Source: Tubiluchus corallicola
Lineage: Eukaryota; Animalia; Priapulida
Direction: 5' to 3'
Assembly: GCA_030141605.1 (NCBI GenBank)
Contig: JAQGDQ010002374.1
Coordinates: forward strand, 248,001-312,000
DNA length: 64,000 nucleotides
This document shows, one piece after another, positions 1,851 through 54,086 of the stretch. Numbering within the stretch: the stretch's first letter is position 1; the number at the start of each line of letters is the position of its first letter. The position numbers were made by a program, and so were the translations under genes. The notes under the pieces are model-generated. The model worked only from the letters and a program-made list of their open reading frames with translations. It was not told the DNA's origin and ran no database searches.

Positions 1851-2051
1851 CAGAGTTGAAGCTGCATCAGCAATTTTGTAAGAAATACGTACACAGGTAA
1901 CTTTGAATTAACGAGCTTTTCCACTTTCCTACACCTTTCGTCCTTTCCTGGAGTTTTTCTCATATAATAAGTGCATGTCACTGTAGGCAGAACACTTAGG
2001 CAGCACAAGCCTTGCCATATAATTAAGCTATTGACACATTTCTACCACGTT

Positions 2052-21654: not shown

Positions 21655-21780
21655 ATGGAAAGAGGAAGACGTGGAAACAGGAAGTGGAAACTTGATATAA
21701 ATACAGCTGATCTTACACAGTTACAAAGTCTGACTGGGGTCGGACCCAGAAAGGCAAAGCAAATAATCAAATCTAGAAAG
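21655..21780 (+). CDS. First coding exon of a ComEA-type helix-hairpin-helix protein (HhH motif 1); predicted N-terminus of a long FBXW7 isoform
   Basis: Acceptor TTTTTGCAG|21635, in-frame stop at 21637 upstream of ATG 21655. Translates [42 protein letters not shown]; donor AAG|GTAATT, phase 0. Confidence 0.85.
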
Positions 21781-24700
21781 GTAATTAGTAGTAGATGACT
21801 GTTATTTAAATACTTACACTTCTATTTCTCTTCAGAAACAAATGAAAAGCAACTAAAAGGATCTAAGACTGACAACAAAAATACATCTTTTTCTATCTAA
21901 TCGCCCAGGTAATATTTTGTTTATTGCACACCTGACCAGAATTTTATTACAAAAATTTTGTACATTCATATACTTACCGGATGTAGTCATATAAAAGCGT
22001 ATTTTTTAATTTAAAACAAAATGCAATGATTATTAAGACATCACTCTTTCGGAGTGTACGCAGCCATGTTTTCGACGACAAACTCTGGTCAACGTTGCTG
22101 TTTTGTATGATGCTTATTATCATATTGGAGGCTAAAAATACCGTATTTTCTGTCAAATTAGTGTATTAATGACCGAGTAGTGTTGCCGCTTATTCCATAA
22201 TTATCAATATACGTTCATGCTTACAAAAAACAGACTATACGATAATTTAGTAATGTGAAACAAAAAACTAAAAAACAAAGTGTGAAATAATGTGCATTGA
22301 AAATAATTTAAAACTTTACTTCTAACTGGTGGGAAATAAACAAACTTTGATTTCAACGGATTTTAAATGTTTCATGATCCAGCTTTAAATATTCACAAAG
22401 CTTAAGAATATTTTTAAGTCTCCTACTGATGTCTTTTGACCTCATAAAGCTAAGACAGGAATAAACTTTTGTGTGGCCTACCTAAGATTTGTCTACTGCA
22501 ACTATAACTGTCTACGTTTCGACAAAATTAATACCCAGAAGTTCTGGAACTATTCGTGTATTCTTGCACTTTTTTTTGTAGCTGAATAGAAAAAAGATTA
22601 AATTACCATTAAGTTACATTCATATTTAAAACTCGTACACCATTTGGCTGATACATTAAAAACTATTGTATATACGATATCAAGTAAGGTTTGAGCTCCT
22701 TGACAAACATCAAAAACTGTTTCATCACGCTTTTGCTAATTTTGTAAACGCAATGAAAATGAAGTCTGCATTTGATTTTTATAATGCTTAATAACATTTA
22801 TTGTACAATTTTTTTATTTTGATTAAGGAATGTTTTAATTTGACCTAAATCATAAGTATATTTTTTTATATCAGATTATTATTATTTACTAATTCCTTCA
22901 TTTTCATTTTTATTTATATTTACTAATGTAAATATAGTATGATATGTATGAAACGTTAGAAACAAGACTGTTTTTAGTGAGGAACTAGGAAGTTAGTATT
23001 TTCACTCGCCAGGACACTGAGCTAGTCATTAATTTTGTGCCTGATCATTTCAAGTTATTTTAATTGTTACACGGTCAATTTGAGTGTTGTTCTTGTTTGA
23101 CTAATTTACTCTTTGTTAAGTTTTTATCTTTTATTTTTGTAATTTTTAGTCAGTAAATCTAATCTAATCTAATTTATGGATGGTTTTTATGATGGTGGTA
23201 CTTAAACATAACAATGAATGTGATTTATCTATCTGCATTAGTATTTAAAATTTAGTGATGTTGCAGCAAGATGGTTGTTCAATTCATGTTGTCTTACTTA
23301 TAAATACATGTCTTTGAACTTTGGCTTGATCCAAACATAGTCCCTTCATATATCTAAGCTTTGCTAAATATTTTTATAACAGTGTCTATTCCTAATTGAT
23401 TTCATCATAAGTATCCCATAGTTTGATTTTTATGGGTTAGGTACAGCTAGTAGGTTTCTAATGTCTAAGGTTCGATGTCATATGCGTTTGGCTTGTTCAG
23501 TTTTTTGCTTCAAGATGTTTGAAGACTTCATGACAGGGCCAAAAATTTCCTGAAATGAAGTGCTCCAAATGCTGCCCCTCGAGATGTCCTGTAGCTCACA
23601 TAATTAATGCATAAGGCTGATCTGTGTGATAATGTTCATTGTCTGCTGAACTTGAGGGATAGTCTGCACTTATTTATTTATGATTTAGACATCATGGGAC
23701 ATCTACAATGTTTTCTTATATTTTGTACATGTGCATGTTTTACATATTTTAAAATTTGAGTGTGTGTTTCAAAATTATTTGTCTTGCACAACAGCTGTTC
23801 TAAAATCGATTGATTTTTAATTTTAAACGTATATTTTAAATAGTTTGTTATTCCGCTCAAAATCAGTGTTTTCATTCATACAGCAGAAAACTTTCCCAGG
23901 CAGATACATTGGTGAAGAGGGTGTGCAGCGGTACTAACTGTTCATTCATGCCAAATAACCACTCATTAATTAGGCATTTTTATAGTAATTTAACATTGGT
24001 ATTTTTTAGCATTTTTGACCTCATATTGCTACTGAGATATTAACCTGAGATATTAGTCATGGTTCTTAAATTTTGTTTGTTTATCATGTGTTTGGTGTCA
24101 GTGCTAAGAAAACCAAATTTTCCAGAATTTTTATGAGGCCAGTGAACGTATGAAACCAGGAGCCTTAGTGGTCTTGCTTTCGCACATGGTTACAGATTTC
24201 TAATACTGTGAGAAAAAGTTGTTTTTTCTGATATAATGGGTATAATTTCTAATTTGCAGCCTTCTTTTGTATTCTGCTCACCTTATTTTTATATTATCTG
24301 TAAATGATGTCTTTGCATTGGCTAACTGCTCTAATCATTTGTAAATATGATCTTATTACTCTGCAATTGATACTGAACATATAATGACATATAAGCTTTG
24401 GCTCACAAGAGGAGACAAATTTAACATGTGGCTTTTTAGCAACTTATTAACAGTTTACATCGTATCCTTGTAGCTATTTATTAAATGACGAAACAGTGTT
24501 AAATAATCTATAGAAAATGGTTGCTTTTGCCTTTTTTACACGCCCTTTGAACGAAGTGTAATGGACCAGTGACTTCTAATATACCTATCAGCTACAGTTG
24601 TATGATTTTGCAGTTATTTTAAAAACTTTGGTGCAGATAAAAGCTGAATGGTGCCAGTAAGCATTTTTACAGTTTCGATGTGTGCACGAACAGTTGCTGT

Positions 24701-27700: not shown

Positions 27701-30700
27701 TAGTAACCAAAGTTGAACAGTGCTAGGTTTGGTTAGCAAATGAATGGGTAACTGTCAAGAAAATAAATTCTGGGAATTTTCATGTGCCATACTGCTTCTG
27801 ATTATTTATTTCATTGTTGCTTGCCTATATATATATATATATAAAGGTTCTCCTCCCACCACAGTTATTAACATAAAAACTGGCCCCTGCATTGAGCGCT
27901 GGATGGTGGCTTCTAGGTACACACACAACAACAGTGCGATACAAACTACATGTATAATTATGTAATATGTGTTACAGAGTGGCCAGTTTTCATGGCTTTC
28001 AACTAATGTTTAATAATTGCATTATTTTGTATAGATACGAGGTGGTTTCGTCAGCGTGAAGGATCTTTCAGATATTCCAGGCATCGGAGAGAACATTGTC
28101 AATCTCAACCGGCACCGTCTCATCTGCTCAAAGCTTGCACAGATTGCAGCAGCACGCCGGGCAAAGGCATGCCGGCGGTGAGTAGTTCTTAACCCAACCA
28201 TTCTTAAGAAAAAGCCTTTTCTGTTTAATGGGATAGAATCTGTCTCAGCTCGACTGCAGGTTGAGAGAGCTTTTTGAGGAATCTACTAACTAAGAGGAGA
28301 TCTCAGATAGCCTACACTTCTTAAGTGTTTCATTGAGAGTACCCTTGAAATTGGCTAAAATGGCATCATATAATGCTATGTTGGTGCTCTCAAGAGCATG
28401 TTGGACACTCGCTGTCTCAACCATTGTGCTACAAAAGGTTAATAACTGTGACTGACAAACTGATCAAAAACTGAGCTAGGTATTATCTCGAAAATTTCTT
28501 CTCACTTTTTCCTGGTCCTGTCAGTTTCTGGCCCTTTTTATGTTTTTTGAAGTGCGGACAATTGTTTTATCATGTGTGTGCGCATGCATGTATGAGCATG
28601 TGTGTGTGTGTGTGTGTGTGTATGCATGCGTGCGTGTGTGCGTGCATGTGCTTTGTGAAACAAACAGATTTTTTGTCAGCGGTTTAATTGGCAACATTCT
28701 AAAAAACTTTCTAAGGTTGGTTTGTTACTGTTATAAAATTGGTTTGTTTGGTGATAATGATTTGATGTAGAATGTCTAGTAGCTAAGCTTTCATCTTTCC
28801 AGTGAGACTCGTAGTTCTGCTAGAACTAAACAGTGGTTGGCCCTAGAACGCACAGGTAAAGAGATGGACCATGGTAGTCCTGGAAAAGAGAAACCGTCTA
28901 CTAGTCATCCAAATCAACACTTAAAAGAGGTGGCTGACGAAGAAGATGATGTTCCGCCTGAATGCACTGACACACCGTCACCATCTGCATGTGTGAGTAA
29001 AATGATCATCATCAATGGTGACTGTTAAGGATTAGCTGATGATAACGATGATGATAGTGATGATAATATAATGAGATGGTGACAAAATTTATTTAGTTTT
29101 AAAATCATTTTCTTATTAAAGAAATGAAGGAGTGAAGCGTCACTCGGGCAGCTAACAGCTAGCTAACATCTTCACTGATGGAGCACCATGGAGACTGAAG
29201 TTAAACCGCAAAACTCGTAAAGCATGCTAAATGCTGATTTCTACTTGCCTTAATGCAGAATTGGTTTTATAGGCACACATTAGGCTTAGAACCTTATTTA
29301 TCTTTTCGTTACCATATTGTTGCTTGAACGGCTTACAAGATATTTATCGTGATCATAACTTTACGCACTTACTGAGATTTAGCAGTTGCATGTGATGTGA
29401 AGAAAAAGTATTATCCACCATGGTTATTATTACTAACCACCGAAAGCTTCTCCATCTTTCATTATGAGTGCTGTCACAAACATGAAGCAGTTATGTCAAG
29501 TTATACTTCATTTGAAGCACTCTCAATCAGTCATTGCTTTAGAATAGCCATGCAGAATATGCCAAGAGAATGCTCCGGTTTGCTTATGATATAATTAATG
29601 CTGCATTGATTTATTAATTTGTTAATCAGTTCACTTTTAAAGATGTTCTTGGTTTAATGAACTTAATACTGATCCTGTATGTAATAGCTCAGTGTTCCAA
29701 GATTTGCATTTCATGCCTATTCGTGCACACATAGGCACATGCCATAATTGGGTTCCTTGAATTTTTAAGTATTAGTTTGTGGGAGCTAATTTCAAACTTT
29801 AGTTAAACAATCTTTTAAAATAGTAACATCTACAATAGTCTTCTGGAGATCTAATCCGATGCTTTTAATACTATCAGTCCAGTACCACAGCCGTCTGACG
29901 GTGCTGCTGGTTAGTTTTTGCTGCCCAGCAAAAAATTGTAATGTATCCTGCTTATCAACTTTTGTTGTGGGCATTCAGCTAAAATTGTTAGCATGCCATG
30001 ATTGTCCAATTTTTTTATCATTTCTTTGAGGACGTGGTTTGCACTCTTGTGATAAAGATTTTGTGCCATCGTTCACACGAGTGCTTCAGCAGAAACCCAT
30101 GTGTTAGAAAAATGTTGTTAGGAATTTTATTATGTTTTTCAGACAAGTCTTATTGGCCATTAGGTCAGTAAGAATTGTAACTGTACCGTCCGCATCTTGA
30201 GCTCTGCTTAGAAAAATATCAATTAAGCCTCTAAATGTATTAAACCATAAACATATGATAGTTATATTTTGCTTGTGACATTGTCTCCACAGGCATTTTT
30301 ACATTATATAGCTGGTCCTTTGTGTGATTGTAATATACAATTGTCGTTTTTTACAGACAACGCCACTTTTGGAAACCACCAGTGCAGTGACTTTATTACA
30401 CCTTAAGAACACAATGGCTACTACTTGCGCCTCAGACAACGGAGACAGTGATACTGATGATGATGATGGCGATGATAATGATAATAGTATTGGCGAGAGA
30501 GAGCAGAGTGACATAAGCGACATAGAAGCTGATGAAATAGCGGCAGCTAAACAGAACACTATAGTCGATGAACATACAGAAAAAATCAGGCAGCGCAAAT
30601 TGGTAAGTGATTTTGTTGTTTGCTTTCTGCACCAAGATAATCAGGCAGCGCAAATTGGTAAGAGATTTTGTTGTTTGCTTTCTGCACTGAAATAAGCGTA

Positions 30701-33700
30701 TAAAAATATGGAAAATTGATCTAATACATGTAGATGATTACATCTTGTTGTGCATTCAAACTAATGCACTGTATTTTGGGGCAAGCTGCATAGCCAAGTG
30801 GTCACTTGTGAATATTTCTTGACTGTCTGGGTTCAATACTTGTGTAAGTTTTATGCATCTTATTGGTTGTGGCTGGATATACCTCATAGAAGATGTACGT
30901 CATCACTCGGATGTCCCTACTGTTGATGATGGCTTGTCTTAGAGAGTTACCTGTGATAATGAGCTAGGTTTTCGTCCTACCACAACCATTGTTTCTTGAG
31001 TACACGTGTTGGTAAGTGAGCGCTTGCGATTATGACTTGCAGTGTGGTGAAGTGTGTAAAAAATGAAAGGATCGTATGTGGTATTGTTTACTGAACTCAC
31101 AGACATAACCACATCCCACCGATGAATGAGATAACCTAGAAATAATGTTGTTGAAAAGCCAAGTGAAGTATGGCAGAATACATGGAAAATATGGGCTGTG
31201 AGGTTAGGATTGGTAACGAGGTGTGACACAGGCTACTGACAGATGATTATATCTGAGCACTATAGAAAAGCACTGTATAAGTAAGAATGAGAATGTACAT
31301 GTAGAATCAGTTAACATACTGTTGGCAATTGAAGGCCATATTCCCAGTCTATGAAGTTTACCATAACAGGTATTTTTTGATAAATTGTGCTGAAGTCTAG
31401 GACATGCACATGCACGGATTTAGTTAGCTTTCAAGTTTTAACTTTTGTGTTTTTGATGCTTATAAAGGCAGTAAATAACTGTTCAAAAACGATAAGCTAG
31501 CCAACTGAACTTTATTTGAATGACATAACATTCAACAGTAGTTGGATGTTTTTCAAGCTGATAATGATGTGATGTGTTGTCACCTTCTCTCATCTTTAAA
31601 GATACACAAGTTATCAGTATTTAATTAAGATATAGTAGCAACTCATTATACATTTGTAAAACAAAGATTTTAGAACTTAGGGAAGTTATTCACCTAACTA
31701 AATTGATATGTTTATTTGCCGCACATGTAGCAGTTAATGTGATCAATTTCCATCCACGTTGCTTTCCTAGTCGTTGTCGAGACAATGCTCAGGTAAATGA
31801 ATACATGAGATCAGAGGTATGCATAAGTGATTGAGGTCAACTGTTCCAACATTATACATGAATGTTCACCATGACCAAACATTTGTTTAATGCCTTATGT
31901 TGGTACGTTGTTAAGATGCTTGGCCATGCTGTTCATCATTTACTGTAGAAGTGTTAAGATTGCAAATTGTCATTAAGTGGCATAAAGTTGTTAACTGTAG
32001 CTGCAAGTTTGTGAGTATTTATGAAAATTGTAAAGGTCTGTACCCTAACTAATTTCGTTTTTTCATATGCAAGTATTTGCTCATTGTATGACTCGCTGAA
32101 ACTGGATAGTTAAACTGTGAATGAAAAATCAGGAACTAGTTCTACCCACTTCTCAGGAATCACCATATTCAGTGAAGGTGTCAAAAATTTGGATTTTGGA
32201 GAAGTAAAACAAGCTTATCAGAACTTAGTTGTTGCAGAACTTAGTTGTTTTGTTTCCGGGCTTTACACTACTCTATCGTTTAACAGCCCTAGATCACACC
32301 AAGTCTTGTACCCAGCAGCCGTGTAAATTACATCAGTCATCTAAAAAGAGCTTTATAATGATTTCCAAACATTTTGACTACATACTAGTGTTCAAGAGCG
32401 TAGCCAGGTCATAGAATTAGAAGTAGCAAGCACATAAAAAAGGCACCGTCACATTTACCAAACATTTTTTAACGCATTAATTATACATTTTTGGTTTGTA
32501 TTTAAAATCAAAACATGAGGAAAATGTAGTTCTAAAGTACATAACTATTGTGTTATATTTAAAATTAAAACACAATGAAAAGTTTTATAGTAAGCTCATA
32601 AATCTCAAAATATACTAAAATGTGTGTTATTTAATTACTTTGATTTTACATGTAAAAAAAAAGATTCAACTTTTATCGCACAAGAGAACTAAATAGTTAA
32701 AAAATTTCAAAAGGCTCCAATTTTGAAATATGTGCTTGGGGAAGCAGTGGTTCCCCTTACTCCCCTATTAGCTATACTACTGTTAGTGTCTTATATGTCC
32801 ACATGTATTTAGTTGTGCCACATACAAGGACATTGAATTTCACGTTCACCAATTTCATCTCCCCCATTTTTGAAGGTGCATAATTTTAGTCGGAATATTT
32901 ATCACGTGTTTATAATCACTATTTCACTCTTTTGTTAAAATGTGCTATATAAATTTGCTTTTGTTTAAAAAAATGCTTATGTTAACAGTGCAGTGAATGC
33001 ACAGTATATTAATTTTGGTATTTAACATGGGCTGTTTCGGCCTGTTTGGTGCTCAAGGCAGAATAAACTGGTGGCCTTTGGTCACTTTGCTATCCTCAGT
33101 CTAAATGTCTTTATGAGAACTGTGCGTTTGTATGTTTTTGTGATTACCGCGAGACATACATAGTTTCGTATTGCTTTTCACATTTGTTGTGCTGCAAACA
33201 TGCTGTGCTATGTTATTTTCTTACGATAATATTGTAATCAAAAATTCGCACTTTTTTGCACCACCTGACACAACAATATTTTTTCTACTTGCAAAAATAG
33301 CAGAAATTTCATTTTTAAGAAGAATTTAAATTATTCTGATTATTTTATTCGTGAACATTACAAAATTGATAAGTATGAGACTTTTGCTCAGCTTTAGGAG
33401 AAAGTGACACAAGTTGTACACAAAGCACGTGTGCCTTTGTCAGGTAATTGGGTTTTGCCCTCGAGCTAAAATCTAGAAATATTTAACCCCGCTTAATGCA
33501 GAGGTTAAAATGTTTTGTGCTAGATTATGATATGTCAGAGTTCATTTTTTAACATTTCCAAAACCATGTTGGATATATATTTAACTATGCCATTCTTGAG
33601 TTCATAAGCCCTGCAATGGATGTGATATATTAAAATGTGTATATGTACTAACATATATTAGTTTTTGGTACTTTTTTAATTCAAAATTTGCTAAAGTTTT

Positions 33701-36700: not shown

Positions 36701-39700
36701 CCCGCAGCGGAATAACAGTCCTGTCTCAGTCACACCAGTATAAAGGCGTTTTGTCTTGCCATGAATGGCACACATTCAGACTGAAAACTAATTTCTAGCA
36801 CTATAATTTCATCAAGAGCGTCAAAATTATACTGGTTTGTGAAAAGTCACGGCCAGAAGCTGTGGAGCGGTGGTCGGGAGAGAATGTGGGTACTGGATGA
36901 TGCTCCATCTTGCAAACCTCGTGTCACGCTGATTTTTACTCCCAAGGTAAGGTTGATTAATCACATTGCACTGTTGTTTTTGGCCTTTGATTAAGTATTG
37001 ATTGGCGGCTGGTCTGATTCCGAACACACTCGGAGCAAACGACGATCTGTCTCTTTCTCTCTCTCGCGATCCTATTTCTGTGTCTTTTTCATTCTCTGGC
37101 TCTTTTCCGTTTCTCTTTCTCTTTTTCTTGGTCTGTCCTCCTCAGTTATCAAGAAAGACGGAATAGCGGTAAATCTTCCTAAATAGCGGCAAGGTTTTTT
37201 TTTACAAAAAATTGATTTATCAGTTACAAATTGCTGTGCAGTTCAATAAAGATGTACGGGCATCATGGCATGTGTTGTTTATTTATCATTTAATGAATAT
37301 TGATTTAACAGTGAAACTAATCAGTGCTTCTCCGTCCTTCGACTTGTGTAATTATTATAAAGAGAGTAAAGATGTTCACATTTTCAAATGAAGAAGCAAG
37401 AGATATTGTTGGTAATGATCCCATGTATCTTCACTTTTGTAATATGAAATATCTGTTTAACTTTACGGAACAACCTCTTATTAAGTAGATTTTCTTTATA
37501 CATTATAAGCTAATACTCATATTCGTATGTAATGTAAATTGACATAAAGTAAACTCACTTACTTCTCTTACTTTGCTGCTTTTAAATTGTTTGTTGCTTT
37601 AAATCAGTTGTTCACAAAAGCAAATCTAACCATACTTGTACTGGGGTTGTACATTAGTAGTTTTGTATAGTAGTGATGGTATTCAATGTATTGTATAATA
37701 TCATAAAAATACAAGTTGAGGCAATGCGATGATGATGATGGTGACCATGACGATGACGATAGCGATGATGACAATATGTTCTATCCTTCCCCCTTGTGTC
37801 CCATATTATCTTTTTTTCGCTGTTTTTCTCTGTCAGTTGTTCTTACATTACTAGCCCATTTTTTAGCCTTTTTGGTTACTAGTCTTCTGCAACTCCTTTG
37901 TGCACTTCATGAGGAAAAACGTGTCAATTAAATAGCCAGTGATTATGACGATTGTAATTCATAGCTCTTGTTTACTTTATGAAGTTTTTTTCGACACACA
38001 TGTATTTCTATTTATACTGTGCCTTTTCTTTATTCGCTAATATTTTTTTTGGCTTCACTTTTGATCCATCTAAGGAATTGCTTCCTTTTTTTGTTTTCAT
38101 CAAAATCTGCCTATGTAGGGAGTTAATAATAGAGATTCATTCATTACTGTTCAGTGTCTCTACCATTATCGACGACGACGTAATGTCTGTTAATTTTGTG
38201 TTACCCATATCCGTCTAGCGTTTGGAAAACTTCAAGTAATGTGCTGCTGTTATATTATAGGCATGTAGGCATGCGTTGATGTAACGTGTTGACAAAATGA
38301 ATACTATGTCAAAAAATTTTTGCGTCCTATTCTTACACATACTATTGAAATTTAGACGGTTTTTAGCGTCTACTGTACTACTACAGTTTTTTTTTATAAT
38401 TTACATCCATATACTACGAATGGTAAGTATCCATACGTTTAAAATATGGGACTTGTCATCTTTAACATAAAAAACATAATGCCCATTATAGTCTCAATGA
38501 CCATATATATAATTTCAGTGGTATATAGGGGAGGAACGGGGGCGAAAAGCCTCCAAAAATGGCCATTTTGCCATTTTTTTTTTGCAAAACTTATACCTCT
38601 CATTTCTAGCATTATATTATTTCAGAAGCTTTCACTCTAGCGGTATTATCAGCAGGAAATTACATAAGAAGTGTTAAAACAGTATATACCGGTGTGAAAC
38701 AAGAACATTAAAAACAAAAATAGTTGCTAAGCAACAATAAGGCATTATGTTTTTTGTGTTAAACATGCGTACGTGTTCGTGCAATTTTTACTACTTTATC
38801 GCTGGCCTCTTTCATTTATTGGGCCCATTCATTTATTTACTGTGCCGGCGCTCCTGTCTTAGCATACTGATAAGCTCTTTCACTGCTCATCTCAGGTGCC
38901 TCCTTTCCTCATAGACGCGCCAGGATATTGTAATGCCAATCAGTAAGCCGGCTAGCCTAAAAGGGAAACTATATATAAGAACAGCCAGCAAGTGTCTCGA
39001 ACTCGCGACCATTTGACTGTGCGTTGATTGTTGATATAACACCTTGAATTCAGTAGCGTGCGCTTTGTAAGAAAATTTGGGCGAGACGCTGTTACCAAAG
39101 GTGTCATTGATGTCAAGTAGTGTAACAATTTGTAAAATTGATGACGCACGTAATTGTTTTTGCACTGTAGGTCAGGCTTTTATCGCCAGCTTTTGTCACA
39201 CTGTTCTAGACTGTTTGAGTTACACCGAATTTAATTTAACCAATTGCTTCTTAAGGTGATACATTGGCATTTTGTAAAAGCTAAACCGCTTTGTTTCTAG
39301 ATTTATTATTATTTGTCACAAAAAGCAATGTACATTCAATGATACGTAACACTAATAACAAAATGGCATACCAAAATGTATAATGATGCATACAGGAATT
39401 ATTATGCTTAATAAATAGCTCATTGTAAGTGGTAATAACACTCGTTAGTAGTCACAATTTTTCGAGTGAGCGCTGTGTGCAGCAATATTGTTATTAAAAT
39501 TGACAAACAAACGTCCTGCAAAAACGTTTTACACATAATCGTGGAATTGTTATCGTTTTACACATAATTAAAGTGTGTGCCAACAAGTATTGTACTCATT
39601 AACAAAGGCATGAACAAGTATATGAGTAAAGTATGTAAATTATGTAAAGTACCTAATAAACGTCCATGCAGTACTGAACAATCAATGACGGCTCTCCGCT

Positions 39701-42700
39701 GTCTTTTGCTACCCCGTCTCAAATACTTCACTAAGTCTGCTATAGAAATAATAAGTTTGCTTTAAATAATTATTATATTGGACATTAAAATATTTTTTAG
39801 TAGAATATTCAAGAGAAAAGTCAACGACAAGGAATTATACAATTGCTTAACCCACACTGTATGATGTTTTTGAAAGAGGACATCTTGTAGCTCTGTTCCT
39901 TTCTCTTTCTAAAGCACTAGTTGTTTGTATATGATATTCAGTAAAATTTTAAGTAAATTGTGTGGGAGGTTTGTCATGCAAAAGCCATTTATAGAAGCTC
40001 AGTATCTGAAACTATTTATTTGTAAAGCATTTTTTGGAACTCTTTTTCAAATTTCTGAAAACTTGACAAAATGTCAAATTAACAATCACCATGACTGATT
40101 TTTAACCACACGCCAATGTTTCAGTAATTTGCCTCATCAATCACAAATTACGTTAACACAGCTTTGCTGTTTTTCTATCAATTTGATCATAGAAATAAGA
40201 AAATTTGAATGTTTTAGCAGAGCTCATGAATTTAATTAATTGCAGCATTTGCAACCAAAACTCTCAAGAACTAATGAATGTCACATTAATAACTAATTAA
40301 TTAAACTATCATTAATTTTTAGCATGGATTTCTGTACGTATCTTATTTTACTTGCACAAGATTTAACCAATTGAAATAAAAGTAAACTTGCTAATTGCCT
40401 GGTTGACTCACAATTTTTTCACACTTTTGTTGTTCAGTTAATCAACTATTATTGTTGTTGTTGTCGTCGTCGTTGTCATCATCATCATCATCATCATTAG
40501 TATTTATTTATTCATTGGGTTATCACATTTCAATGTGTAAAAATCTATTATTGAGTTGAGAGCCAACTAATTTGATGACATTTAAAATTTATCTATGAGT
40601 TTGGAGTTTGATTACAAACATTATGATTCTTTTTAACTCGCTAATTACTGCTTTCAGGCTGAGATTTCCCTGAAAAAGAAAAAGTTTTTTTTAATTATAA
40701 TTTTTGGGGTCATCACTCATGATGCTCTACCTGCCCCTTCACTAGGATCCACCTTCACTAGTGGTGACTCCTTAATCCAACGTGCTACTCACTCAGTAAC
40801 TGGTTTTACTCCTGTCTTACAATTTTAACGCAACATTGAACTTTCTTAAATTTAGCTTGAAGAAGACAAAGTGCCCTTTAAGTCTCAAAAAAAATTATTT
40901 TCCCTGGTGCATTTGTGCTTGGTAGAGATACAACAATTTAAAAAATCATAAAAATTATAGATAAAACTACATGTAAAGTGTAAGTATACAATGGCATTAA
41001 AATAAGGGATACAAAATTCATTAAGAAGCTGTATTAAAAACTAAAATAGAAAAAAAAATCATTGGGAAGCTGTATTAAAAACTTATTTAGAAAAAACATT
41101 ACAATTTCTAATTAATAAAAAAAATCAAGATCAAAATGAAACTGCTGACAAACATACCTGAAGCTACTTGTATGGCCTAGAATAGATCATGAAATAAAGC
41201 CTTCTTAATGAACTTTGTATCCTCTATTTTAATGTCATTGTATACTTACACTTTACATGTAGTCCGTGACGGAATGAAAGCTTCTGGAAAAATAAAAGTT
41301 TTTGAGATTCAAAGGGCACTGTGACTTCTTTATGATTATTTCTTGAATTTAGTATGCTTCATGCATTTAAGAAATTCTGACATTCGTAGTGCTGTTATCT
41401 CAGACATAATGACTCTCTAGTTATTTCTTACTTTCTTTGTTTGTGTTTTTACGATATTTGATTGATTTCTTGTAAGAATACACACTTTCCTGGAAATTTA
41501 TCTTTTCTTTGTTTTCTGTGCTACATTTACAGGTTTAATTAAAAAGTAGACAAATGAAAAATGTTGGTTTTTTTTGTTTATTTTGGTTTTATGTCATTGG
41601 ATTACTTTTAAGATTATACGTATTCCATGAAAGTGATTGCTAATATTTGACTGCATTGTCAGGACTTAGAAAAAACAGAATGACACCTGGCAAGGTAACG
41701 TTCCATTAGTCATTGCTTGAGTTTCATTTCAGGTGTTTAAAATTATACTTTGCCATTTCCGCTGCATTTTATGTACATTTGTACATAAATATTCATTTAT
41801 TTTGGTTGTTTAAATTAATTTTAAATATTTTCTTTTAGTCAAAAAGAAAGTCAGAACGTGATGAGCCTACCACAGAGAACTGTGCTGCCAAGATCAAGCG
41901 CAAGTCGGGCGATTCCCCAACTGGAACACCGAATTCTTCTTCCACCAGAAAAATGTGCCAATTTAGCGATAGCCTACCACCGTTCTATTCCCAGTAAGTG
42001 TGGTACAGTCGTATCTTATACGTATTTTTATAGCAAAATTGCTACCTTTCATTTTAAAGAAAAGTAGGAGTCCGCTAAGTGCCAGTTTAAATTCAGCAAT
42101 ATTACTGCGTTTTTAAACGAAAATTTCAGGTCAGCTAGTTATCATTACCCACCACAAGAGGGAGTGATGGCAGACCGTCATCAGGCTTTTGGTTTACCAA
42201 CAGGCGCTACATCTGCCTCATTAACGCCACGACGACGCATCCCGTCCAAATCTAATCCACCAGTGGAGATGAACGAGTGGCTAAAAGTATTTCAGGTCAG
42301 TTTACTTTGAGATTCATACTGATCGCAAATTTAGAAATGGAAAAAAATTGCTCATAGTTAATCGTTGTGTGTAGATAAAGTTGTATGTTTGAGAAAGCTT
42401 GTGGTCATCTGAATCTGAAAAAATGTAGTCTCTTGATTCTTTTACGAAGGTGATGATTTCTTTATTGTAAGAGCTAAATATTTTTTGTATTTACTTTTAG
42501 TCATGGAGTAATGCTGAGCGCTTGCTAGCGTTAGATCAACTAATAGAATTATGTGAGCCAACACAGGTACGACATATCATGACTGTTATTGAGCCACAAT
42601 TTCAGAGGGATTTTATCAGCTTATTGCCAAAAGAGGTAATTAACTGTTTTTCATTTCTCATGTTAACATATTTCTTAGGTTAACAAGTAATTCTAATATT

Positions 42701-45700
42701 CACATAATTTGAGTTTTGATACAAATTTTTGCTGCGTCAGAAATGGTAATTTGTAAGAGCACTAGCTTATAATGCTTCCTCTTACTTGTCAGTTCTGTTG
42801 CCATTTTATGCACATTTTATGGTCAACACCAAAGTTTAGAGCACTGATTCTGCCATCTAGTTGAATTGCTGTTGAACTAACAGGAGTTGGTATGCCTCTA
42901 AGCCAGTGGTTCTTAACCTTGTTGGAGGTACCGAACCCCACCAGTTTCATATGCGCATTCACCGAACCCTTCTTTAGTGAAAAATAAAATATGATTTTTT
43001 TCAAATTCAAGACATAGATATGTTTTTTACTGGTACACAAAATGAGCCGTGCATGAACATCACCTTATTCAAAGAACAAAACCAACACAATGCATAAACT
43101 CACAACAAATTACATACCTGCAAATCAGTGTGACTTCTGCTGTTGCCTTTGAGAGACCAGTTCAGATATGCATGGCTTCACCTTGGCCACTCTGCTGAAC
43201 CCCTGAGATCGACTCACCGAACCCCTAGGGTTCGATCGAATCCAGGTTAAGAACCACTGCTCTAAGCTAATAGTTTTTCATGCACTATTTGTAGTTGCTA
43301 ATGTTAATTATTGTGTACTCCTAATATTTAAAAAAAACTTGGAAATGACCAGCATTTGTGCATTGCAATTTCACCTAATGCATCATAATTAGTCATTTGA
43401 ACGAGAGAGGAAAACCGTGTAAATATTCTTTTGTTTTAGCTTTTTTGTAAACTTTCTGGTTCGTTTTAGAAAAATAGTCTGCAATTTGCTGTCGCAATTT
43501 ATTGACCATGGCTCATTTAAGTTTTACACTCACGACAGAGACATTCATTCATTCATTTTCATATAAAATTTAATGCCTGCGGGCCATTTTTCCAAAATTG
43601 CTTAAATTTTTTTGAACTTTGGAAAATTATAAGACTATTATGCTTAGATAAGTTGTGTTTGCTGTTGAAAAACTAACTGCTTACAGTCAGTAATAATTAA
43701 TAGATCAGTAATAGTTAATAGATAATGATACAGAGTGAAATTAATGCATAACATAATGTTGACCTTTTTAGCTTGCCCTGTACGTGTTGTCGTTTTTGGA
43801 GCCTCGGTCACTTTTACATGCGGCTCAGACATGTCGTTATTGGCGTGTGTTAGCCGAGGATAATCTACTTTGGCGAGAGAAGTGCCGAGAAGCTGGAATA
43901 GACGAGGCAGTCGTGTTTAACAAGTATGTATGCAGTTTTATACAGAGCACGACATTGGCTTTTTGTTCTTATACGAATGAAGCATAGAAACATGATTAAG
44001 AATGTTTGCTATTAAAAATAAGCTAGTGACAGCATGGTTTCAGTCAAACTCGATTGACTTCCAATCATTCACTTTTACATTGCGCTTGTGGCAAAATTTT
44101 TGCCTTGCGCCTAGTTTCTTGAATTTCATATACATTAGAATCTTGTTTTGTCACGGTGTTTGTGATGGCATAGCCTGTTATACTTGCATATTACATATTA
44201 CAGTAAAACTTACATATTACATGCACGTGCATCCACTGAACATTACACTTGTGTTAGTAATCTCTTGTCACCCCTTTCCGTAAATGAAACTGCTAATAAT
44301 GGGGTTGTCATTTTCTACTGTATTAGCTCAAACACCTGAAACCATTTAAACTATTCTAAGTAGAGCATACCTGCTTCATGGGACTCTTTAGTAGAGCAAA
44401 CAAAAGTGTATACCCAACGACAGAGATATTTTTAGAATGCGATTTTGTCCTGAAACTCTTAGAACTATGAGATGTTCTTATCAATTGTGTGCATAAAATT
44501 TCAAAAGTATTTTGCTGTTTTATTTTCATCTTTCATTTATTGTTCCAGTTTTTATGTTGATAGATAATACTTCCTTTAAGCTTTTAAATTGGTGCGGAGA
44601 ATTAAGTTGTCTAAGTCTTGATTTTTATATCCATCTTGATGAAGAAATTCTGTCGCAAATATTTCATTTGTCTCAGGTCGTTTTTTTTTACAGATTTCCT
44701 TGCTTTGTTTTTATCTAGGAAACGAAGATTAGTCTCTGGCACTCATCGAAGTCCTTGGAAAAGTGCTTACATGCGACAGCATCAGATTGAAATGAATTGG
44801 CGAGTCGGTCAAATTCGCACGCCCAAGGTATAAGTTAAGAACGTGCGCTGTTATTTATAATCTTTAAATTTTTATAACATTGTCACTTAATAATGGTATG
44901 AGCTATTAGTTGAGATTTTTTTAACCAGACTTGTTCAAATAAAAAAATGTGAAAAGCTGAGAACGAACCTAGCTGATATTGGACTTGTAGTCTAAAGTTA
45001 GTTCTGGCTATTTCAATTTCTTATCTTGGCATTGGATTTAGAATCCAAAAGTCCAGGTTTAAATTAGGGCTCAGTTTCGGTTATGTTTGCCTTACAAAAA
45101 AACCTTGAGTTGTCAGTTTATTCTATTACGATATTCTACATTTCAGTTTCTATCCTGCCCATATGTTTTGGTAAGCAAAACTAAAGATTTTTTTATTTAA
45201 TATTGGAAAAATATTTGTGCTTTTCTAGGTGTTGAAGGGACACGATGATCATGTTATCACCTGTCTGCAGTTCTCAGGTAACCGGGTTGTCAGCGGATCG
45301 GATGACAACACGCTCAAGGTGTGGTCAGCAACCACCGGAAAGGTAAGCGAAGTTTCTTTGGACACATATCTTATTTATTGTTTCATAAATGTTCCATCAA
45401 TACAAATGTAAACATACAACAATGTATAGAATAACAAACAAAATGCTAAGTCACACTTTTGCCTACAGTTTCATTGTGTCCGTTGTACATACAGACCTAT
45501 GAAGCAAAGTTCAAAAACTTTTGTGTAACAAATTAGGAAAGCCTGTTTTAATTTAATAGTTGTAACAACATAATACAACATCCAACTTTTTCTAGTGTTT
45601 ACGCACACTTGTTGGTCACACTGGCGGTGTTTGGTCATCACAGATGTCGGGTAACATTATAATCAGTGGTTCAACTGACCGCACACTAAAGGTTTGGAAT

Positions 45701-48700
45701 GCCGACACTGGACAGTGTACGCACACTCTGTACGGGCACACGTCAACTGTACGATGCATGCATCTACATGGGAATAAGTAAGCTTTTTTCAGTTTTTAAT
45801 GTACTTTTAATCTACCCAGTGACTTTTACAGTCAAACCTCGTTTGGCATTACAAAAGGAGTAACGCTCCTTTTGTAATGCCAACCTCCCTCAGGACCCAA
45901 ATTTTAGTAAAACAAAATATCCGTATTTGCATAAATACGTATGCATGAATGCACCTTGTTATAATGCCAGACTCGCTATAACGTTTTTGCATTCTCAAAG
46001 TAGGCGGTGTAAAGAGGTTTGACTATTATGTTAATTTAATGTTCAGTAACCCAGATTCTAGATCTAGAGAAAGCAGGTGTTCAGATTTTTATTGCTTTTC
46101 AGTGTGTATGGCATTATATTATCATTTTCCAAATGCATTCAATATGTTATATCTTTCTGCATTTCAGAGTAGTGAGTGGATCACGGGATGCAACACTTAG
46201 AGTCTGGGACGTTGACAGTGGTGAGTGTTTGCACGTGCTGATGGGTCACGTTGCTGCTGTCCGATGCGTCCAGTATGATGGCAAGAGGGTTGTTAGTGGG
46301 GCGTATGATTACACTGTTAAAGTTTGGAATCCGGATTCGGAAGAGTGCCTACACACGTTGACCGGACATACGAATCGTGTCTATTCCTTACAGGTATGGC
46401 ATTTTTAAAAAATCGATCGTAATAGTAGCAAGAATCGAGTAAGCAAATGTCTTTTACAGCTAATATAACAAAATAAATTACAAATTAAGAGCCATTGACT
46501 TTAACTTCATAATTTGAAAAAAAATGAATTTCATGTAAAAAATTAATTTTATGTAACTATGTACTTTTAACTGTTAACAATTTATATGTTGTCAAGTCGC
46601 ATCTTGCCAGAAACAGGAGTCTGCAATGGTGTATTTCATCTGTTGTAAATGGTCAAAACACAAAAACAAAATCTCCCACTCAGTACCACTTTCTCTCATC
46701 ACATAACATTGAAATCCTGGGAAATTTAGGTAGTTGCAGTTATTATCTTTATTATATCAGTGTAATTTTAAAAGTACTTTGTTAACTAATTCTTCGCTTT
46801 GTTTTCACTGCACACGAATGCATCCATTACAAGAATAGGAGTACAGTACATGGCATCTGTTAGTACTACTGGTATCGTATTTTAATGTTTATGTAAATTA
46901 TTCTTGTCTCTCACATCATTGATTGATGTTTACATTTTAGTTTGATGGCATTCACGTAGTCAGCGGTTCACTGGATACATCGATACGTGTTTGGGACATT
47001 GAAACGGGTAACTGTTTACACACGCTGATGGGACATCAGTCGTTAACTAGTGGCATGGAGCTCAAGGACAACATACTTGTGTCGGGGAATGCTGATTCGA
47101 CAGTCAAAGTGTGGGACATCGTGACAGGGCAATGCTTGCAAACATTAACAGGTAAACTAGGTCTCTTACCTTAATGTGTTCTACTACTGGTTTCTACTGG
47201 TGCTGCTGCTATTACTACTTGCTACTGTAGTACTTTACCACTATTTACTACTATGTTCAGCTACTGTAGTTTGCCAGTTAAAGGTGGGGCAAGCTGAAAT
47301 TCATTGAATTTTTAATACCAAACTTGAGTAATATATCTAAAGAAATTGGCAGTGATTCTGGAGTCTAGACTCGAATCGCAGATGATATTTGAATTATGAA
47401 TTTAATAATTCTGTGTTCTTTCTATCAAAAAGTTCATGTTATGTTTTTCTTTTTATATTCTGTATTAAACAATCTCAGTATTTTTTGTTTGACTTAGGCA
47501 CATAGTTAGCCTAGATAGCAATCTGCTTAATCTTCCTCTATCTGGGGCAAGTTATATTCTACATTCTTTTGTGACTGTCACACTTGCTTGATTGATAATA
47601 TAACATTCAAGATGTGTAAACACTTTTCAGGCCCCAACAAACATCAGAGTGCGGTCACTTGTTTGCAGTTTAATAGCAAGTTTGTTATCACGTCTTCTGA
47701 TGATGGTACCGTAAAACTGTGGGATTTGAAGACTGGTGAATTCCTGCGAAATCTGGTGTCTTTAGATAGTGGTGGCAGTGGTGGTGTTGTGTGGAGGATA
47801 AGGTAAGCTAACTGAAAATTACAAAAACAACATACTAAGATTGACTCCCAAAATATGTGTGATGCGATATATGCAGAACAAGTTGATAATAGCAATTATA
47901 CTTTTAATATATGGTCTTGTATGAGATTTTTTATTCCTGGAAATGACAATAATTCATTGCAAAAAATATAGTTTTAAACATGAATTGAAATAGTACAGAG
48001 TAGTATAAAAAATGACAAACATTGTTTGAACCCTAAATAGGAGTGTAGTGGCTATAGAATTAATAAGTAAGCACTTTGAACACGACTTTAATGTAGTTCA
48101 ATTATGTAAACATAATAAAATACTAGGTGATAGTAAACTTTTACTGTGTTATCAGTTCTTGTTTGTTAGCCAAGACAACACAGCCTGTCTAGACAAGACA
48201 ATATGTTTCCGACTCCTTATTGCTAATATTAGGCACATTCAAAAAGCTAATGTTTTAGTTAAAGTTGAATCTTGAAGTGCACTCGTAACATGGCAATCGT
48301 ATGCTAATAAAAGTTGACGTGAAGTAATTGAAGCTGTAGCTGTAGAACGTATCAATGAGTACATTGAAAAGTTGTTGGCTTGACACAAGCATTGCTAGCA
48401 GCCAAAGCAGTAGTAGGCTAATTACATTGTTGCGTATAAGCTTGTGAAATGGCAAACGTGAGCCAGAAAATGCACAAACACCTTTTAAACTCAAAGTATT
48501 GACATGTTTTACGTTTTCTTGGCTTTCTATGCAAACAATAGCTTACTCATTACACAAGTAATGAATAAAAATCAAGCAGTTAATTGAATTATTTTAACCT
48601 TCATTGTCAACAACTTCATCTAATCTTTTATAAAGGCTGCAAATGTTAACTCAGATGTATCATAAGTATTGTATCGTTATAGCTGTACTAGAAACAGGAC

Positions 48701-48844
48701 TATTATTTTGTTTGACGTTAGTTGATAGCAACTTATTTTTGTTTCAGAGCAAGTCAAACGAAATTAGTCTGTGCTGTTGGGTCAAGAAATGGTACAGAAG
48801 AAACAAAGTTATTAGTGCAAGATTTTGATGCTGATGTTAAATAA
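21655..48844 (+). CDS. FBXW7: Predicted long isoform: HhH / acidic linker / D-domain / F-box / WD40 FBXW7, about 825 aa, 17 coding exons
   Basis: Exons 21655-21780, 28035-28177, 28803-28992, 30357-30602, 31771-31792, then the core exons from 41663. Summed length is 2478 nt, in frame throughout, all introns GT-AG. The join to the core is inferred from phase compatibility only. Confidence 0.6.
24845..25712 (+). mobile_element. Probable Helentron-associated (HINE/DINE-1-like) non-autonomous element; 5' boundary uncertain
   Basis: GC-richer intronic island with internal repeats (GTTCCCGACCCC, CCTAGCGG), a CATGACCTTTGAC motif and a 3' hairpin TAAGATTTTGC-TATG-GCGAAATCTTA at 25684-25709 after an A-rich tract. 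Confidence 0.35.
28035..28177 (+). CDS. Second coding exon, HhH motif 2
   Basis: TTTTGTATAG| acceptor; [47 protein letters not shown]; donor CG|GTGAGT. Phase 0 in, phase 2 out. Completes the HHH_3/ComEA consensus (INTA..L..LPG.G...A..I...R...GGF..V.DL..VPGIG). Confidence 0.85.
28574..28650. repeat. (TG)n-rich microsatellite
   Basis: TGTGTG run at 28599-28621 with degenerate TGCG/TGCA flanks. Confidence 0.9.
28803..28992 (+). CDS. Third coding exon (low-complexity linker)
   Basis: TCTTTCCAG| acceptor; [63 protein letters not shown]; donor |GTGAGT. Phase 2 in, phase 0 out, matching both neighbours. Confidence 0.75.
30357..30602 (+). CDS. Fourth coding exon (Asp/Glu-rich linker)
   Basis: TTTTTTACAG| acceptor; [11 protein letters not shown]...[56 protein letters not shown]; donor TTG|GTAAGT. 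Phase 0 in, phase 0 out. Confidence 0.75.
31771..31792 (+). CDS. 22-nt microexon linking the HhH module to the FBXW7 core
   Basis: GCTTTCCTAG|TCGTTGTCGAGACAATGCTCAG|GTAAAT; encodes SLSRQCS+G. Phase 0 in, phase 1 out, exactly what exon 41663 requires. Confidence 0.55.
32393..32782. mobile_element. Old hAT-like MITE
   Basis: Ends CAAGAGCGTAGC / GCTATACTACTG form a degenerate TIR; flanking 8-mers CTAGTGTT and TTAGTGTC look like a decayed 8-bp TSD. Confidence 0.45.
34051..34107. repeat. Minisatellite, 3 x 19 bp (CACAGTACTGTTTTTAACT)
   Basis: Three consecutive copies, the first with one mismatch. Confidence 0.9.
38936..38978 (+). promoter_or_regulatory. CCAAT box plus TATA box: candidate internal promoter for a short FBXW7 isoform
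   Basis: CCAAT at 38936-38940 and TATATATAA at 38970-38978, upstream of a phase-compatible first exon. Confidence 0.5.
39110..39170 (+). CDS. FBXW7: Alternative first coding exon of FBXW7 (short isoform)
   Basis: ATG at 39110 gives [20 protein letters not shown]+G; donor TAG|GTCAGG is phase 1, compatible with exon 41663 (G|GA); preceded by CCAAT/TATA. Confidence 0.5.
40450..40497. repeat. Compound trinucleotide microsatellite (TTG)n(TCG)n(ATC)n
   Basis: Read directly from the sequence. Confidence 0.8.
40859..41331. mobile_element. MITE / fold-back element with long inverted repeats
   Basis: Left arm about 40859-41028 (AAGAAGACAAAGTGCCCTTT...CTACATGTAAAGTGTAAGTATACAATGGCATTAAAAT...TTCATTAAGAAG) is mirrored by the right arm at about 41200-41331. 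Confidence 0.7.
41663..48844 (+). CDS. FBXW7: F-box/WD repeat-containing protein 7 (Cdc4/Ago/SEL-10 orthologue), common core exons
   Basis: Exons 41663-41694, 41839-41993, 42130-42295, 42501-42635, 43772-43923, 44719-44827, 45229-45342, 45596-45777, 46168-46393, 46941-47151, 47631-47802, 48748-48844 (TAA). D domain ([34 protein letters not shown]), F-box ([21 protein letters not shown]), WD40 repeats ([14 protein letters not shown]...), substrate-binding arginines in STVRC, SGSRD and AAVRC, and C-terminal [14 protein letters not shown]. Confidence 0.96.
42904..43259. mobile_element. Young hAT (Charlie-type) MITE, 356 bp, in an FBXW7 intron
   Basis: Perfect 16-bp TIRs CAGTGGTTCTTAACCT / AGGTTAAGAACCACTG and a perfect 8-bp TSD CTCTAAGC (42896-42903, 43260-43267); subterminal CCGAACCC repeats. 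Confidence 0.92.
45829..46025. mobile_element. Short Tc1/pogo-like MITE with the same TIR as 3324-4770
   Basis: TA|CAGTCAAACCTCGTT ... AAGAGGTTTGACTA (one terminal mismatch). Confidence 0.6.
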
Positions 48845-50154
48845 GTGTACTCGAGTCATCATAGAAAATTGTCACACGTACGGGACCAAGATTTCCACTT
48901 GTGTAATTTGCGAGAAGAGTGCAATGATTGGCGTAGAGAGTCCGAACAGTATTAATGAACTCCGACTAAGCCTAAGCATAATTGCATTAACGTTTTCAAA
49001 TAATCGAACTTTAGGAATTTTCTTGCATTACTGTGGCACAAGTACTAAGTTTGTAGTGATCCTTTACCTCAGGCTTTTGCAAAAAATGTGCTTCTTATCA
49101 TCTTTATCAAAGTCTTACAGCTGATGTATCAACCCAACTTTGCTCTTAAAGTATGTAGTGACATGCTCTCTTAAAATTTTATTAGCATTTTCTTTAACTG
49201 TGTAATTGTGAGTCTGTCATTATTATTTTAGCTGTTCTTGTGCCACAATCTTGCAATTTGTGCTTTTCTCTAAAAATATCTGGGAATCAAAGTGATGTGG
49301 AGTATAACGTAACCAATGGAGTTGTACTGTGTGCACGTCTCCTAGTCTTTCTTAATGGATAGTCTACTGTGTTCGATCGTCTTTCACTCGTATAGTGCGA
49401 CATCGAGAAGCAAATGGCTATAATGTTCGCGTTAGGAAACTGAAAAGCCCCATATTGATTATCATTTTACAGTATTGCTAATGAAATATAGATGGTGGCA
49501 TGGTAGATGACATCAGAAAATATAAGTGAGCTAACAGTTTTCTTTGGTCGAGGGACAAATGTCCCTGACTCTTAACTTTTTAGGAGAGATAGTCACTTGA
49601 TTCAGTAATTGATGATAATCTCCATTAATGTCTAATAGCTAGAGGCATGATGGTTACAGTCATGTCAGATCATGCGCATAAATATCCAGTGGTAAGTTTT
49701 TGCACCAATCCTGTTGTACAAATGTTCATGTATATAGTGGCTTCTAGATTTTGTGTAGGCCTTGGCAACTTATTTCGTCACGTTTTTTAGTTTAATTTTT
49801 ACTTATTCGTTTATGCTCTTAAACAAACGAGTAATTCCCGAAAGATCACTTTGGCATATTTACTTAGTATTTTCAGTTTTATTTGGCAACTTTAAAATAA
49901 ACATCTTCAATGTAGCATTAGAGCAGTGCATAACCCCCTCCCCCGATGACAAATTTGAAAATATGGCACTGAGGATAAAGCTGTTTTGCTTGTGTGATAT
50001 TTTTTTTGTTTTAGTTTAGTTGTTGAAGTTGGCAAGTGGCCAAAATTATTACGTAAGTGATAATTCTTTAGTTTATGCTAAAACTTTCTGTATAATTTTG
50101 TTGATGTGTGTGTTTGTTTTATTTTCACTTTGATACTTTGCTTATTTTTATGTA

Positions 50155-54000: not shown

Positions 54001-54046
54001 CTTTTTCATCCAGCAATGAAATGATCCCAGCAGCAGAAGTGATCAT
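51035..54046 (-). CDS. PSMD1: 26S proteasome non-ATPase regulatory subunit 1 (Rpn2), 1003 aa, single coding exon
   Basis: Uninterrupted ORF. The true start is ATG 54046 ([14 protein letters not shown], the conserved Rpn2 N-terminus), not GTG 54061. PC-repeat toroid ([53 protein letters not shown]) and the C-terminal Rpn13-binding tail [13 protein letters not shown] are present. Confidence 0.97.
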
Positions 54047-54086
54047 GATGACAAAGTCCACTTAGCTGAAAATTCTATTTGCAAAC

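Follow-up and report, generated by a model that had tools for sequence, protein, structure and literature searches.

On the forward strand of the window, a stretch of 64,000 nucleotides from the priapulid Tubiluchus corallicola, lies a gene whose sequence identifies it as encoding a complete FBXW7, with D domain, F-box and WD40 propeller. A longer isoform, beginning with a helix-hairpin-helix (HhH) domain, is likely to be made from this gene. FBXW7 has been studied intensively as a tumour suppressor. It is the adaptor by which growth-driving proteins are marked for destruction, and many of the proteins that it targets act on DNA, but in its familiar form it is not known to have a folded DNA-binding domain.

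Table 1. Exons and domains of the FBXW7 gene in the window, with the evidence for each
Feature	Position	Strand	Evidence
Start-codon exon, first HhH motif, aa 1-42	21635..21780	+	ATG 21655; HHH_3 match
Second HhH motif and basic tail, aa 43-90	28035..28177	+	HHH_3 and homolog-profile matches
Linker exon 1, phase 2 in, phase 0 out	28803..28992	+	splice signals, open frame
Acidic linker exon	30357..30602	+	frame; spliced to 41839 in X2 contig
22-nt exon of the sequence-only reading, possibly alternative	31771..31792	+	strong donor; absent from the single spliced contig
32-nt exon of the sequence-only reading, possibly of another isoform	41663..41694	+	plausible splice sites; absent from the single spliced contig
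First two common FBXW7 exons (41839-41993, 42130-42295)	41839..42295	+	X2 joint 41993>42130; frame
Dimerisation (D) domain exon	42501..42635	+	protein matches
F-box exon	43772..43923	+	PF12937, E 1.2e-13
Seven exons into and forming the WD40 propeller	44719..48845	+	WD40 matches; X2 joint 46393>46941
Individual exons of the WD40 part (stop in the last)	44719-44827, 45229-45342, 45596-45777, 46168-46393, 46941-47151, 47631-47802, 48748-48845	+	

The core of the protein is encoded by 11 exons (41839-48845) that follow four N-terminal ones. Its D-domain exon, which precedes the F-box, matches 941 proteins at E <= 0.001; it is 80-98% identical to the 120 matches listed, among which the named proteins are FBXW7 or else unnamed F-box proteins. 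WD40 matches were obtained in all three exons scanned. Counted along the 807-residue model, the three substrate-binding arginine motifs begin at residues 562, 577 and 602, with the spacing of 14 and 26 that separates R465, R479 and R505, the phosphodegron-binding arginines of human FBXW7 (PMC6486556). D domain, F-box, WD40 and arginine motifs are alike in this protein, vertebrate FBXW7-alpha, Drosophila Ago and C. elegans SEL-10. The protein is 92% identical over 483 columns to a Priapulus FBXW7-like protein, which it adjoins in two quick trees built from FBXW7 rows only. The first two common exons encode basic, NLS-like clusters.

The two HhH exons take up consecutive halves of the Pfam domain HHH_3. 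The first matches at positions 5-35 (E 1.5e-8, 35 bits, against a curated cut-off of 27), and the second at positions 38-63 (E 0.0067), a match that, alone, falls below the curated cut-off. When a profile of 17 homologs was run against the six frames of the window, only these two exons matched (E 9.3e-12 and 4.3e-11; next best 0.21), which means that the match is not due to chance; the same scan indicated a single (HhH)2 unit. Whole-domain homologs score 49-54 bits against HHH_3, and the window domain is 40-52% identical to the FBXW7-fused domains of homologs. The profile matches thus confirm the HhH exons as real. Exon 1 by itself was too short a query for a homolog search, which yielded six candidates and no match. 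Bacterial ComEA-like proteins crowded a search with the HhH profile.

All introns of the HhH-FBXW7 model are GT-AG and its exon phases are compatible. Ranked among AG sites, the acceptor of the start-codon exon reaches the 97th percentile, and the donor of this exon reaches the 99th among GT sites; the acceptor of the first linker exon is at the 99.5th percentile, and the open frame of this exon is required for phase. The frame stays open both when 30602 is joined directly to 41839 (807 aa) and when the two small exons, 31771-31792 and 41663-41694, are added (825 aa). None of the sequencing runs listed for the region is recorded as RNA, which says nothing about expression. Run X1 was taken as DNA because it covers introns and displays no splice joints. 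X2, which is about 90% alike to the window and was taken as RNA by guess, provided the sole spliced contig across the region, in which 30602 is joined directly to 41839 and both small exons are skipped. This favours the 807-residue form over the 825-residue one. Hence the sequence-only reading was right to attach the acidic linker to FBXW7; its exon path has an open frame as proposed, but the two small exons are skipped in this contig. Two further joints, 41993>42130 and 46393>46941, were found in X2. This contig, from a close relative, supports the link of the acidic exon to FBXW7. At 90% likeness the X2 contigs do not cover 27950-29950 and say nothing on absence there; phase, splice signals and homologs make it likely that the joints 21780>28035, 28177>28803 and 28992>30357 are real. 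The acidic exon contributes 19 D/E within residues 178-225, and vertebrate FBXW7-alpha likewise has an acidic N-terminal region, as described in PMC5574586. An upstream reading frame of three codons (21642-21653) stands ahead of the ATG.

The assignment to the ComEA/HHH_3 fold, first made from the letters alone, is borne out by the HHH_3 matches, by structure-sequence matches and by the model of a homolog, and the HMMER-type comparison with Pfam HHH_3, F-box and WD40 matched all three. The model is that of the Solemya homolog P0064, not of the window's joined protein: AlphaFold scores its HhH domain at a pLDDT of about 96 and its linker at about 47, and the domain superimposes on ComEA 8dss with a Z of 12.7 (rmsd 1.0, 65 residues). 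The predicted fold is the same as that of the DNA-binding domain of ComEA (8DFK, 8DSS, 2DUY), whose hairpin glycines are conserved here too. Residues were counted over 47 domains, that of the window included, after mapping ComEA positions through an alignment to 8dfk. The position of B. subtilis K164 (V. cholerae K63) is K or R in 46 domains (K33 in the window), that of G60 is G in all 47, and that of R71 is R in all 47; the K199 position is K or R in 34. In ComEA, loss of K164 or K199 reduces transformation more than 100-fold (PMC9747964), and loss of the K164-equivalent lysine abolished DNA binding (PMC3879209). These conserved positions, together with the modelled fold, predict that the domain binds the DNA backbone with no sequence preference. 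In the window it has a net charge of +5 and basic flanks. Unlike in ComEA, the positions of K193 and K197 are not basic, with one exception each among the 47 domains (the former, after the second hairpin, is N62 in the window), and the K62 position is basic in 10. K193 is among the DNA contacts in the ComEA model, yet K193A has only about a 4-fold effect, according to PMC9747964. Net-negative domains also exist: that of Daphnia carries -3, and P0019 carries -6, with E at the key lysine position. The lack of basic residues at the K193 and K197 positions and the net-negative domains count against a DNA tether.

The combination of HHH_3, F-box and WD40 is found in cnidarians, molluscs, an annelid, a brachiopod, nemerteans, crustaceans, amphioxus, a tunicate and birds; further fusions came from Clytia, two octocorals, Styela, a crab, an amphipod, an ostracod and Colius. 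In birds, the carrier is a second FBXW7 paralog, filed as RRP8. PF12836 is present in 21 of 120 FBXW7 relatives among the matches listed. In a tree of 71 columns, which like all our trees is a quick SH-aLRT tree, 31 of 34 FBXW7 HhH domains, that of the window among them, lie on one branch (SH-aLRT 95) apart from 25 non-FBXW7 ComEA-like domains; the other three are divergent, cnidarian-like domains. None of the 35 insect, 17 nematode and 14 canonical vertebrate proteins checked had the HhH domain; this set is without the full-length human, fly and C. elegans proteins, and absence in it can mean an incomplete model (Priapulus P0002 begins at the core, and some of the vertebrate entries are likewise short or fragmentary). 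The sequence-only reading had held that human FBXW7, fly Ago and yeast Cdc4 have no HhH domain, which agrees with the canonical vertebrate and insect proteins checked. It had put the fusion forward as an isoform of this gene; the distribution shows that the architecture is widespread and no peculiarity of one isoform or species. As this front end is common from corals to the bird paralog, and absent from the insect, nematode and ordinary vertebrate forms checked, the design is likely to be ancestral in animals. The domain was then probably lost separately in canonical vertebrate FBXW7, insects and nematodes, and such repeated loss would make it dispensable for the core function of FBXW7; in birds at least, the second vertebrate copy has likely kept it. 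Teleost 'FBXW7-like' proteins, which might have been orthologs of the bird paralog, were discarded: one of them falls with canonical FBXW7, and those checked all lack the domain. In the ESM Atlas we found ordinary FBXW7 clusters, with HHH_3 in none of the three families shown; a bird fragment gave one weak match.

We lean slightly towards a model in which this gene makes a long FBXW7 isoform with a (HhH)2, predicted to bind DNA non-specifically, on a flexible linker before an intact core, a design that is probably ancestral in animals. The ComEA-type unit at the N-terminus would be followed by a predicted-flexible linker of about 250 residues and then by D domain, F-box and WD40. Fbw7 dimerises via its D domain (PMC5574586), and the SCF dimer would therefore display two (HhH)2 units. 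Two weak DNA contacts could jointly hold the ligase on chromatin and so concentrate it around substrates that are phosphorylated and bound to DNA, for instance transcription factors known to be degraded by FBXW7; more speculatively, the linker's acidic stretch might weaken DNA binding in cis. Any avidity would come here from the D domain, whereas ComEA, a periplasmic DNA-uptake receptor rather than a ubiquitin-ligase subunit, has its own oligomerisation domain. EEPD1 is also an animal protein with N-terminal HHH_3-type (HhH)2 on flexible tethers before a dimerising C-terminal domain; it differs in that each chain carries two (HhH)2 units, together with an EEP fold and a site for myristoylation, in place of one unit and F-box/WD40. 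Its isolated (HhH)2 domains do not bind DNA, the dimer being required, and (HhH)2 also works as a protein dimerisation module in XPF-ERCC1, as related in PMC12988330. A ligase that must be recruited to chromatin to process its substrate is known in RNF12/RLIM (PMC10781586), although RNF12 belongs to the RING ligases and owes its recruitment to a basic region, and HhH-FBXW7 is an SCF receptor with a folded HhH. Whether the ancestral FBXW7 dimer clamped chromatin with a pair of ComEA-type domains, the forms on which the field rests (mammalian FBXW7, fly Ago and worm SEL-10) being independent truncations, and vertebrates retaining an unrecognised tethered second FBXW7, in birds adjoining RRP8 and misnamed after it, we regard as an even question.

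The domain might instead not be a general tether, and might sense DNA damage or fork structures, bringing SCF-FBXW7 to breaks or reversed forks, where it would ubiquitylate repair proteins. The best match in a sequence search of solved structures was indeed EEPD1 (E 8.8e-27, over two stretches), a dsDNA clamp at reversed forks (PMC12988330), and human FBXW7 is recruited to damage sites, where it promotes XRCC4 ubiquitylation and NHEJ. However, ComEA outscores EEPD1 per domain (66.7 against 55.9 bits), the sequence gives no hint of structure specificity, and human FBXW7 reaches damage through PAR binding by its WD40, with no HhH, according to PMC6486556, which makes this explanation unlikely. 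The ligand could also be something other than DNA, namely a protein partner, another copy of the domain, the acidic linker (autoinhibition), RNA or poly(ADP-ribose). The absence of the ComEA K193 lysine from the second hairpin and the net acidity of some members would fit such a ligand; residues conserved within this family alone, towards the C-terminal end (C in 40 of 47), could make a separate surface, and Tex, Spt6, TEFM and PsbU are among the structural neighbours of the P0064 domain. This too we consider improbable, and the more so as the position of the DNA-essential ComEA lysine is basic in 46 of 47 domains, from cnidarians to birds, and the second glycine of the first hairpin is invariant. 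That the HhH exons of T. corallicola are a separate short transcript or a relic would accord with the lack of RNA joints for the three upstream introns and with the many AATAAA/ATTAAA hexamers of the 11.2-kb intron 3' of 30602, but is very hard to credit when X2 joins the acidic exon to the core, the phases chain without a stop, the window domain sits among FBXW7-fused domains, and homologs share the order HhH, basic tail, acidic linker, core.

No description of the HhH-FBXW7 fusion was found in Creative Commons papers of PMC or in bioRxiv, and a term search of the EEPD1 structure paper, a Xenopus F-box survey and an FBXW7 review gave no mention of it. The architecture is already visible, however, in the automatic Pfam annotation of many RefSeq and UniProt proteins. 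An ancestral form with a DNA-binding domain, the reading we prefer, would suggest how an SCF receptor could select DNA-bound substrates. It would also change the reading of the disordered N-terminus of FBXW7-alpha; among the canonical vertebrate, insect and nematode proteins checked, none has the folded (HhH)2 that HhH-FBXW7 bears at its extreme N-terminus. The tail of human Fbw7-alpha is reportedly DNA-binding, which was not used as evidence here. The two vertebrate paralogs present in one bird genome offer a natural comparison with and without the domain. The start of exon 28035 falls in the same domain column as that of the bird paralog's exon, as inferred from read-through models.

The sequence-only reading had proposed that a ComEA-type tandem helix-hairpin-helix domain, (HhH)2 (Pfam HHH_3, PF12836), is spliced through a linker to the FBXW7 core (D domain, F-box and WD40 propeller). 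The exons it named for domain, linker and core are all present in the window, which is animal genomic DNA with a GC content of ~35%, and they are bounded by GT-AG introns and leave the frame open. The HHH_3 profile matches exon 1 (E 1.5e-8) and exon 2 (E 0.0067) over successive stretches; together they make up a single domain, as the reading had it. When a profile of 17 homologous HhH domains was run against the six frames of the window, it found only these exons, at E 9.3e-12 and 4.3e-11, against 0.21 for the next-best hit; once joined, the domain shares 40-52% identity with them across 63 residues. The core is 92% identical to an FBXW7-like protein of Priapulus caudatus over 483 columns, and two quick trees place them side by side (support 96 and 94). 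The D-domain exon, 42501-42635, also gives a sub-threshold Pfam match to the Vts1-like family PF25479 (E 3.8e-5).

Exons of the HhH-FBXW7 gene model in the window
Feature	Position	Strand	Remarks
Exon 1	21655-21780	+	GT-AG introns; HHH_3 positions 5-35; joint to 28035 predicted
Exon 2	28035-28177	+	GT-AG introns; HHH_3 positions 38-63; joint to 28803 predicted
Linker exon	28803-28992	+	GT-AG introns; joint to 30357 predicted
Acidic linker exon	30357-30602	+	GT-AG introns; joint 30602>41839 in X2 contig
Eleven FBXW7 core exons	41839 to 48845	+	GT-AG introns

Two sequencing runs were compared with window positions 27950-47949, and splicing was followed in one of them, X2, which is presumed to be RNA and comes from a relative or a distant population (~90% alike). 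One 334-base X2 contig crosses from 30602 to 41839 at GT..AG, its shorter arm covering 116 bases, and also holds the joint 41993>42130; a second contig holds 46393>46941. The acidic linker exon is thus part of the FBXW7 transcript, and the expected linker-to-core junction was found. The reading's path through two small exons (31771-31792 and 41663-41694) fared less evenly: its frame is open, giving 825 aa (807 aa without both), but both exons are skipped in the X2 contig, one contig of one run. Through a 55-bp tandem duplication at 30584-30693 (51/55 alike), the acidic exon has a second splice donor, at 30657; being in phase 1, this copy could be joined straight to exon 41663 with the 22-nt exon left out. 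A three-codon uORF at 21642-21653, in strong context, stops one base ahead of the main ATG, where it may lower the translation of the long isoform. Two Magallana gigas models with the HhH domain, P0080 and P0088, differ in the acidic linker segment; this may reflect alternative use of the segment or a difference between models.

The fusion is real and widespread. A search with the D-domain exon returned 941 proteins, at least 21 of them with PF12836 as counted among the best 120; the PF12836-bearing FBXW7 proteins among the matches listed include Branchiostoma, Lingula, Owenia, Lineus, Daphnia magna and nine mollusc genera, and in a Tubulanus model the domain is represented by its second half only. 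The 150 matches listed for P0064, the Solemya HhH-FBXW7 protein, among 50%-cluster representatives comprise 12 with HhH and core, 117 with core only, 19 with HhH only and two with neither. Further holders by name are Styela, Eriocheir, Hyalella, Cyprideis, Clytia, Dendronephthya, Paramuricea and the mousebird Colius, so that the architecture read in the window recurs from cnidarians to a bird. At 20 bits or more, the HhH profile matched none of 35 named insect, 17 nematode, three Gordionus and 14 canonical vertebrate proteins, nor seven others (Priapulus, Daphnia pulex, Argonauta, Limulus, Chamberlinius, Oppia, Babylonia); since partial models and short isoforms are among them, a single absence counts for little, and the insect and nematode sets carry more weight. 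An N-extended FBXW7 alpha model, P0245, truncated at its start, likewise has no HHH_3 match, although remnants may lie further upstream. A tree over 71 columns with 25 other HhH domains places 31 of the 34 FBXW7 domains on one branch (95) and three divergent ones, Clytia among them, elsewhere; it is compatible with one origin but does not prove it. Directly ahead of the core, 17 of 49 HhH-FBXW7 linkers carry an SRIP-type motif (one SRFP; e.g. P0001, P0051, P0053, P0114), which resembles the SxIP EB1-binding signal; the window's model lacks this motif.

RefSeq merges a second bird FBXW7 gene with the neighbouring RRP8, whose name it then bears (Colius striatus P0383, P0240, P0380, P0382, P0384 and P0385; Manacus P0239). 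Among the Colius models, 'ribosomal RNA-processing protein 8 isoform X6' (P0383, XP_061845805.1; 742 aa) is a clean HhH-FBXW7 protein, with a full HhH domain (62.5 bits; found in one bird species only), an acidic linker and the FBXW7 core, and with no RRP8 sequence in its N-terminus. In sister bird models, RRP8 exons are spliced onto the second HhH half, and the joint falls on the domain column at which exon 28035 of the window starts; these protein models therefore point to an intron common to the window and the bird paralog. Colius, Urocolius and Manacus group together (100), and their clade is joined to canonical vertebrate FBXW7 (96), amphioxus lying outside; the RRP8-adjacent gene is thus likely a vertebrate duplicate. 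In human, FBXW7 has ARFIP1, TRIM2 and DCHS2 in its vicinity, and RRP8 has ARFIP2, TRIM3 and DCHS1; the bird gene would then be a whole-genome-duplication copy, missing in human. The architecture already shows in the precomputed Pfam annotations of many proteins in RefSeq and UniProt and is thus not hidden; searches of the open literature turned up no account of it, nor of the bird paralog with the HhH domain. The points of note are the architecture's probably ancestral spread and the vertebrate paralog.

The function of the fusion is predicted from sequence. An AlphaFold2 model of P0064 (21 sequences) has a pLDDT of ~96 in the domain and ~47 in the linker (pTM 0.30 overall). The modelled domain superimposes on Geobacillus stearothermophilus ComEA (Z 12.7, rmsd 1.0, 65 residues), followed by Tex and a Thermus thermophilus ComEA-like protein (both 10.7); among solved structures, the sequence profile matches EEPD1, ComEA and KIF22. 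Residues were mapped through a Bacillus subtilis ComEA chain whose four lysines show the K164/K193/K197/K199 spacing, and were counted in 47 distinct domains possessing a first hairpin. K or R occupies the K164 position in 46 and the K199 position in 34, and the K193 and K197 positions in one each; those of Vibrio cholerae G60 and R71 are invariant. In ComEA, K164A and K199A cut transformation >100-fold and K193A and K197A 2- to 4-fold, and a K164-equivalent mutation abolished DNA binding (PMC9747964, PMC3879209). By this alignment, the conserved lysine positions are the functionally important set. Against this, members differ in net charge, with extremes of -6 and +7, and in one of them the key K164 position is E.

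Fbw7 uses its D domain to dimerise and its WD40 domain to bind substrates (PMC5574586, PMC6081812), and (HhH)2 units of EEPD1 bind DNA only in the full-length dimer (PMC12988330). An FBXW7 dimer would display a pair of (HhH)2 units, each on a long flexible arm, which could grip DNA by avidity and thereby favour phosphorylated substrates sitting on DNA; we lean modestly towards this putative mechanism. That the domain instead senses DNA damage or forks is unlikely. A ligand other than DNA, or autoinhibition, seems a shade less probable still. A separate transcript of the HhH exons in Tubiluchus corallicola is very improbable.

Two further features lie on the minus strand. One at ~2050-12130, a multi-exon gene head to head with FBXW7, looks like the splicing factor PRPF3. 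At 51035-54061, an uninterrupted, intronless frame of 1008 aa among intron-rich neighbours, which looks like the proteasome subunit PSMD1/Rpn2, is possibly a retrocopy.
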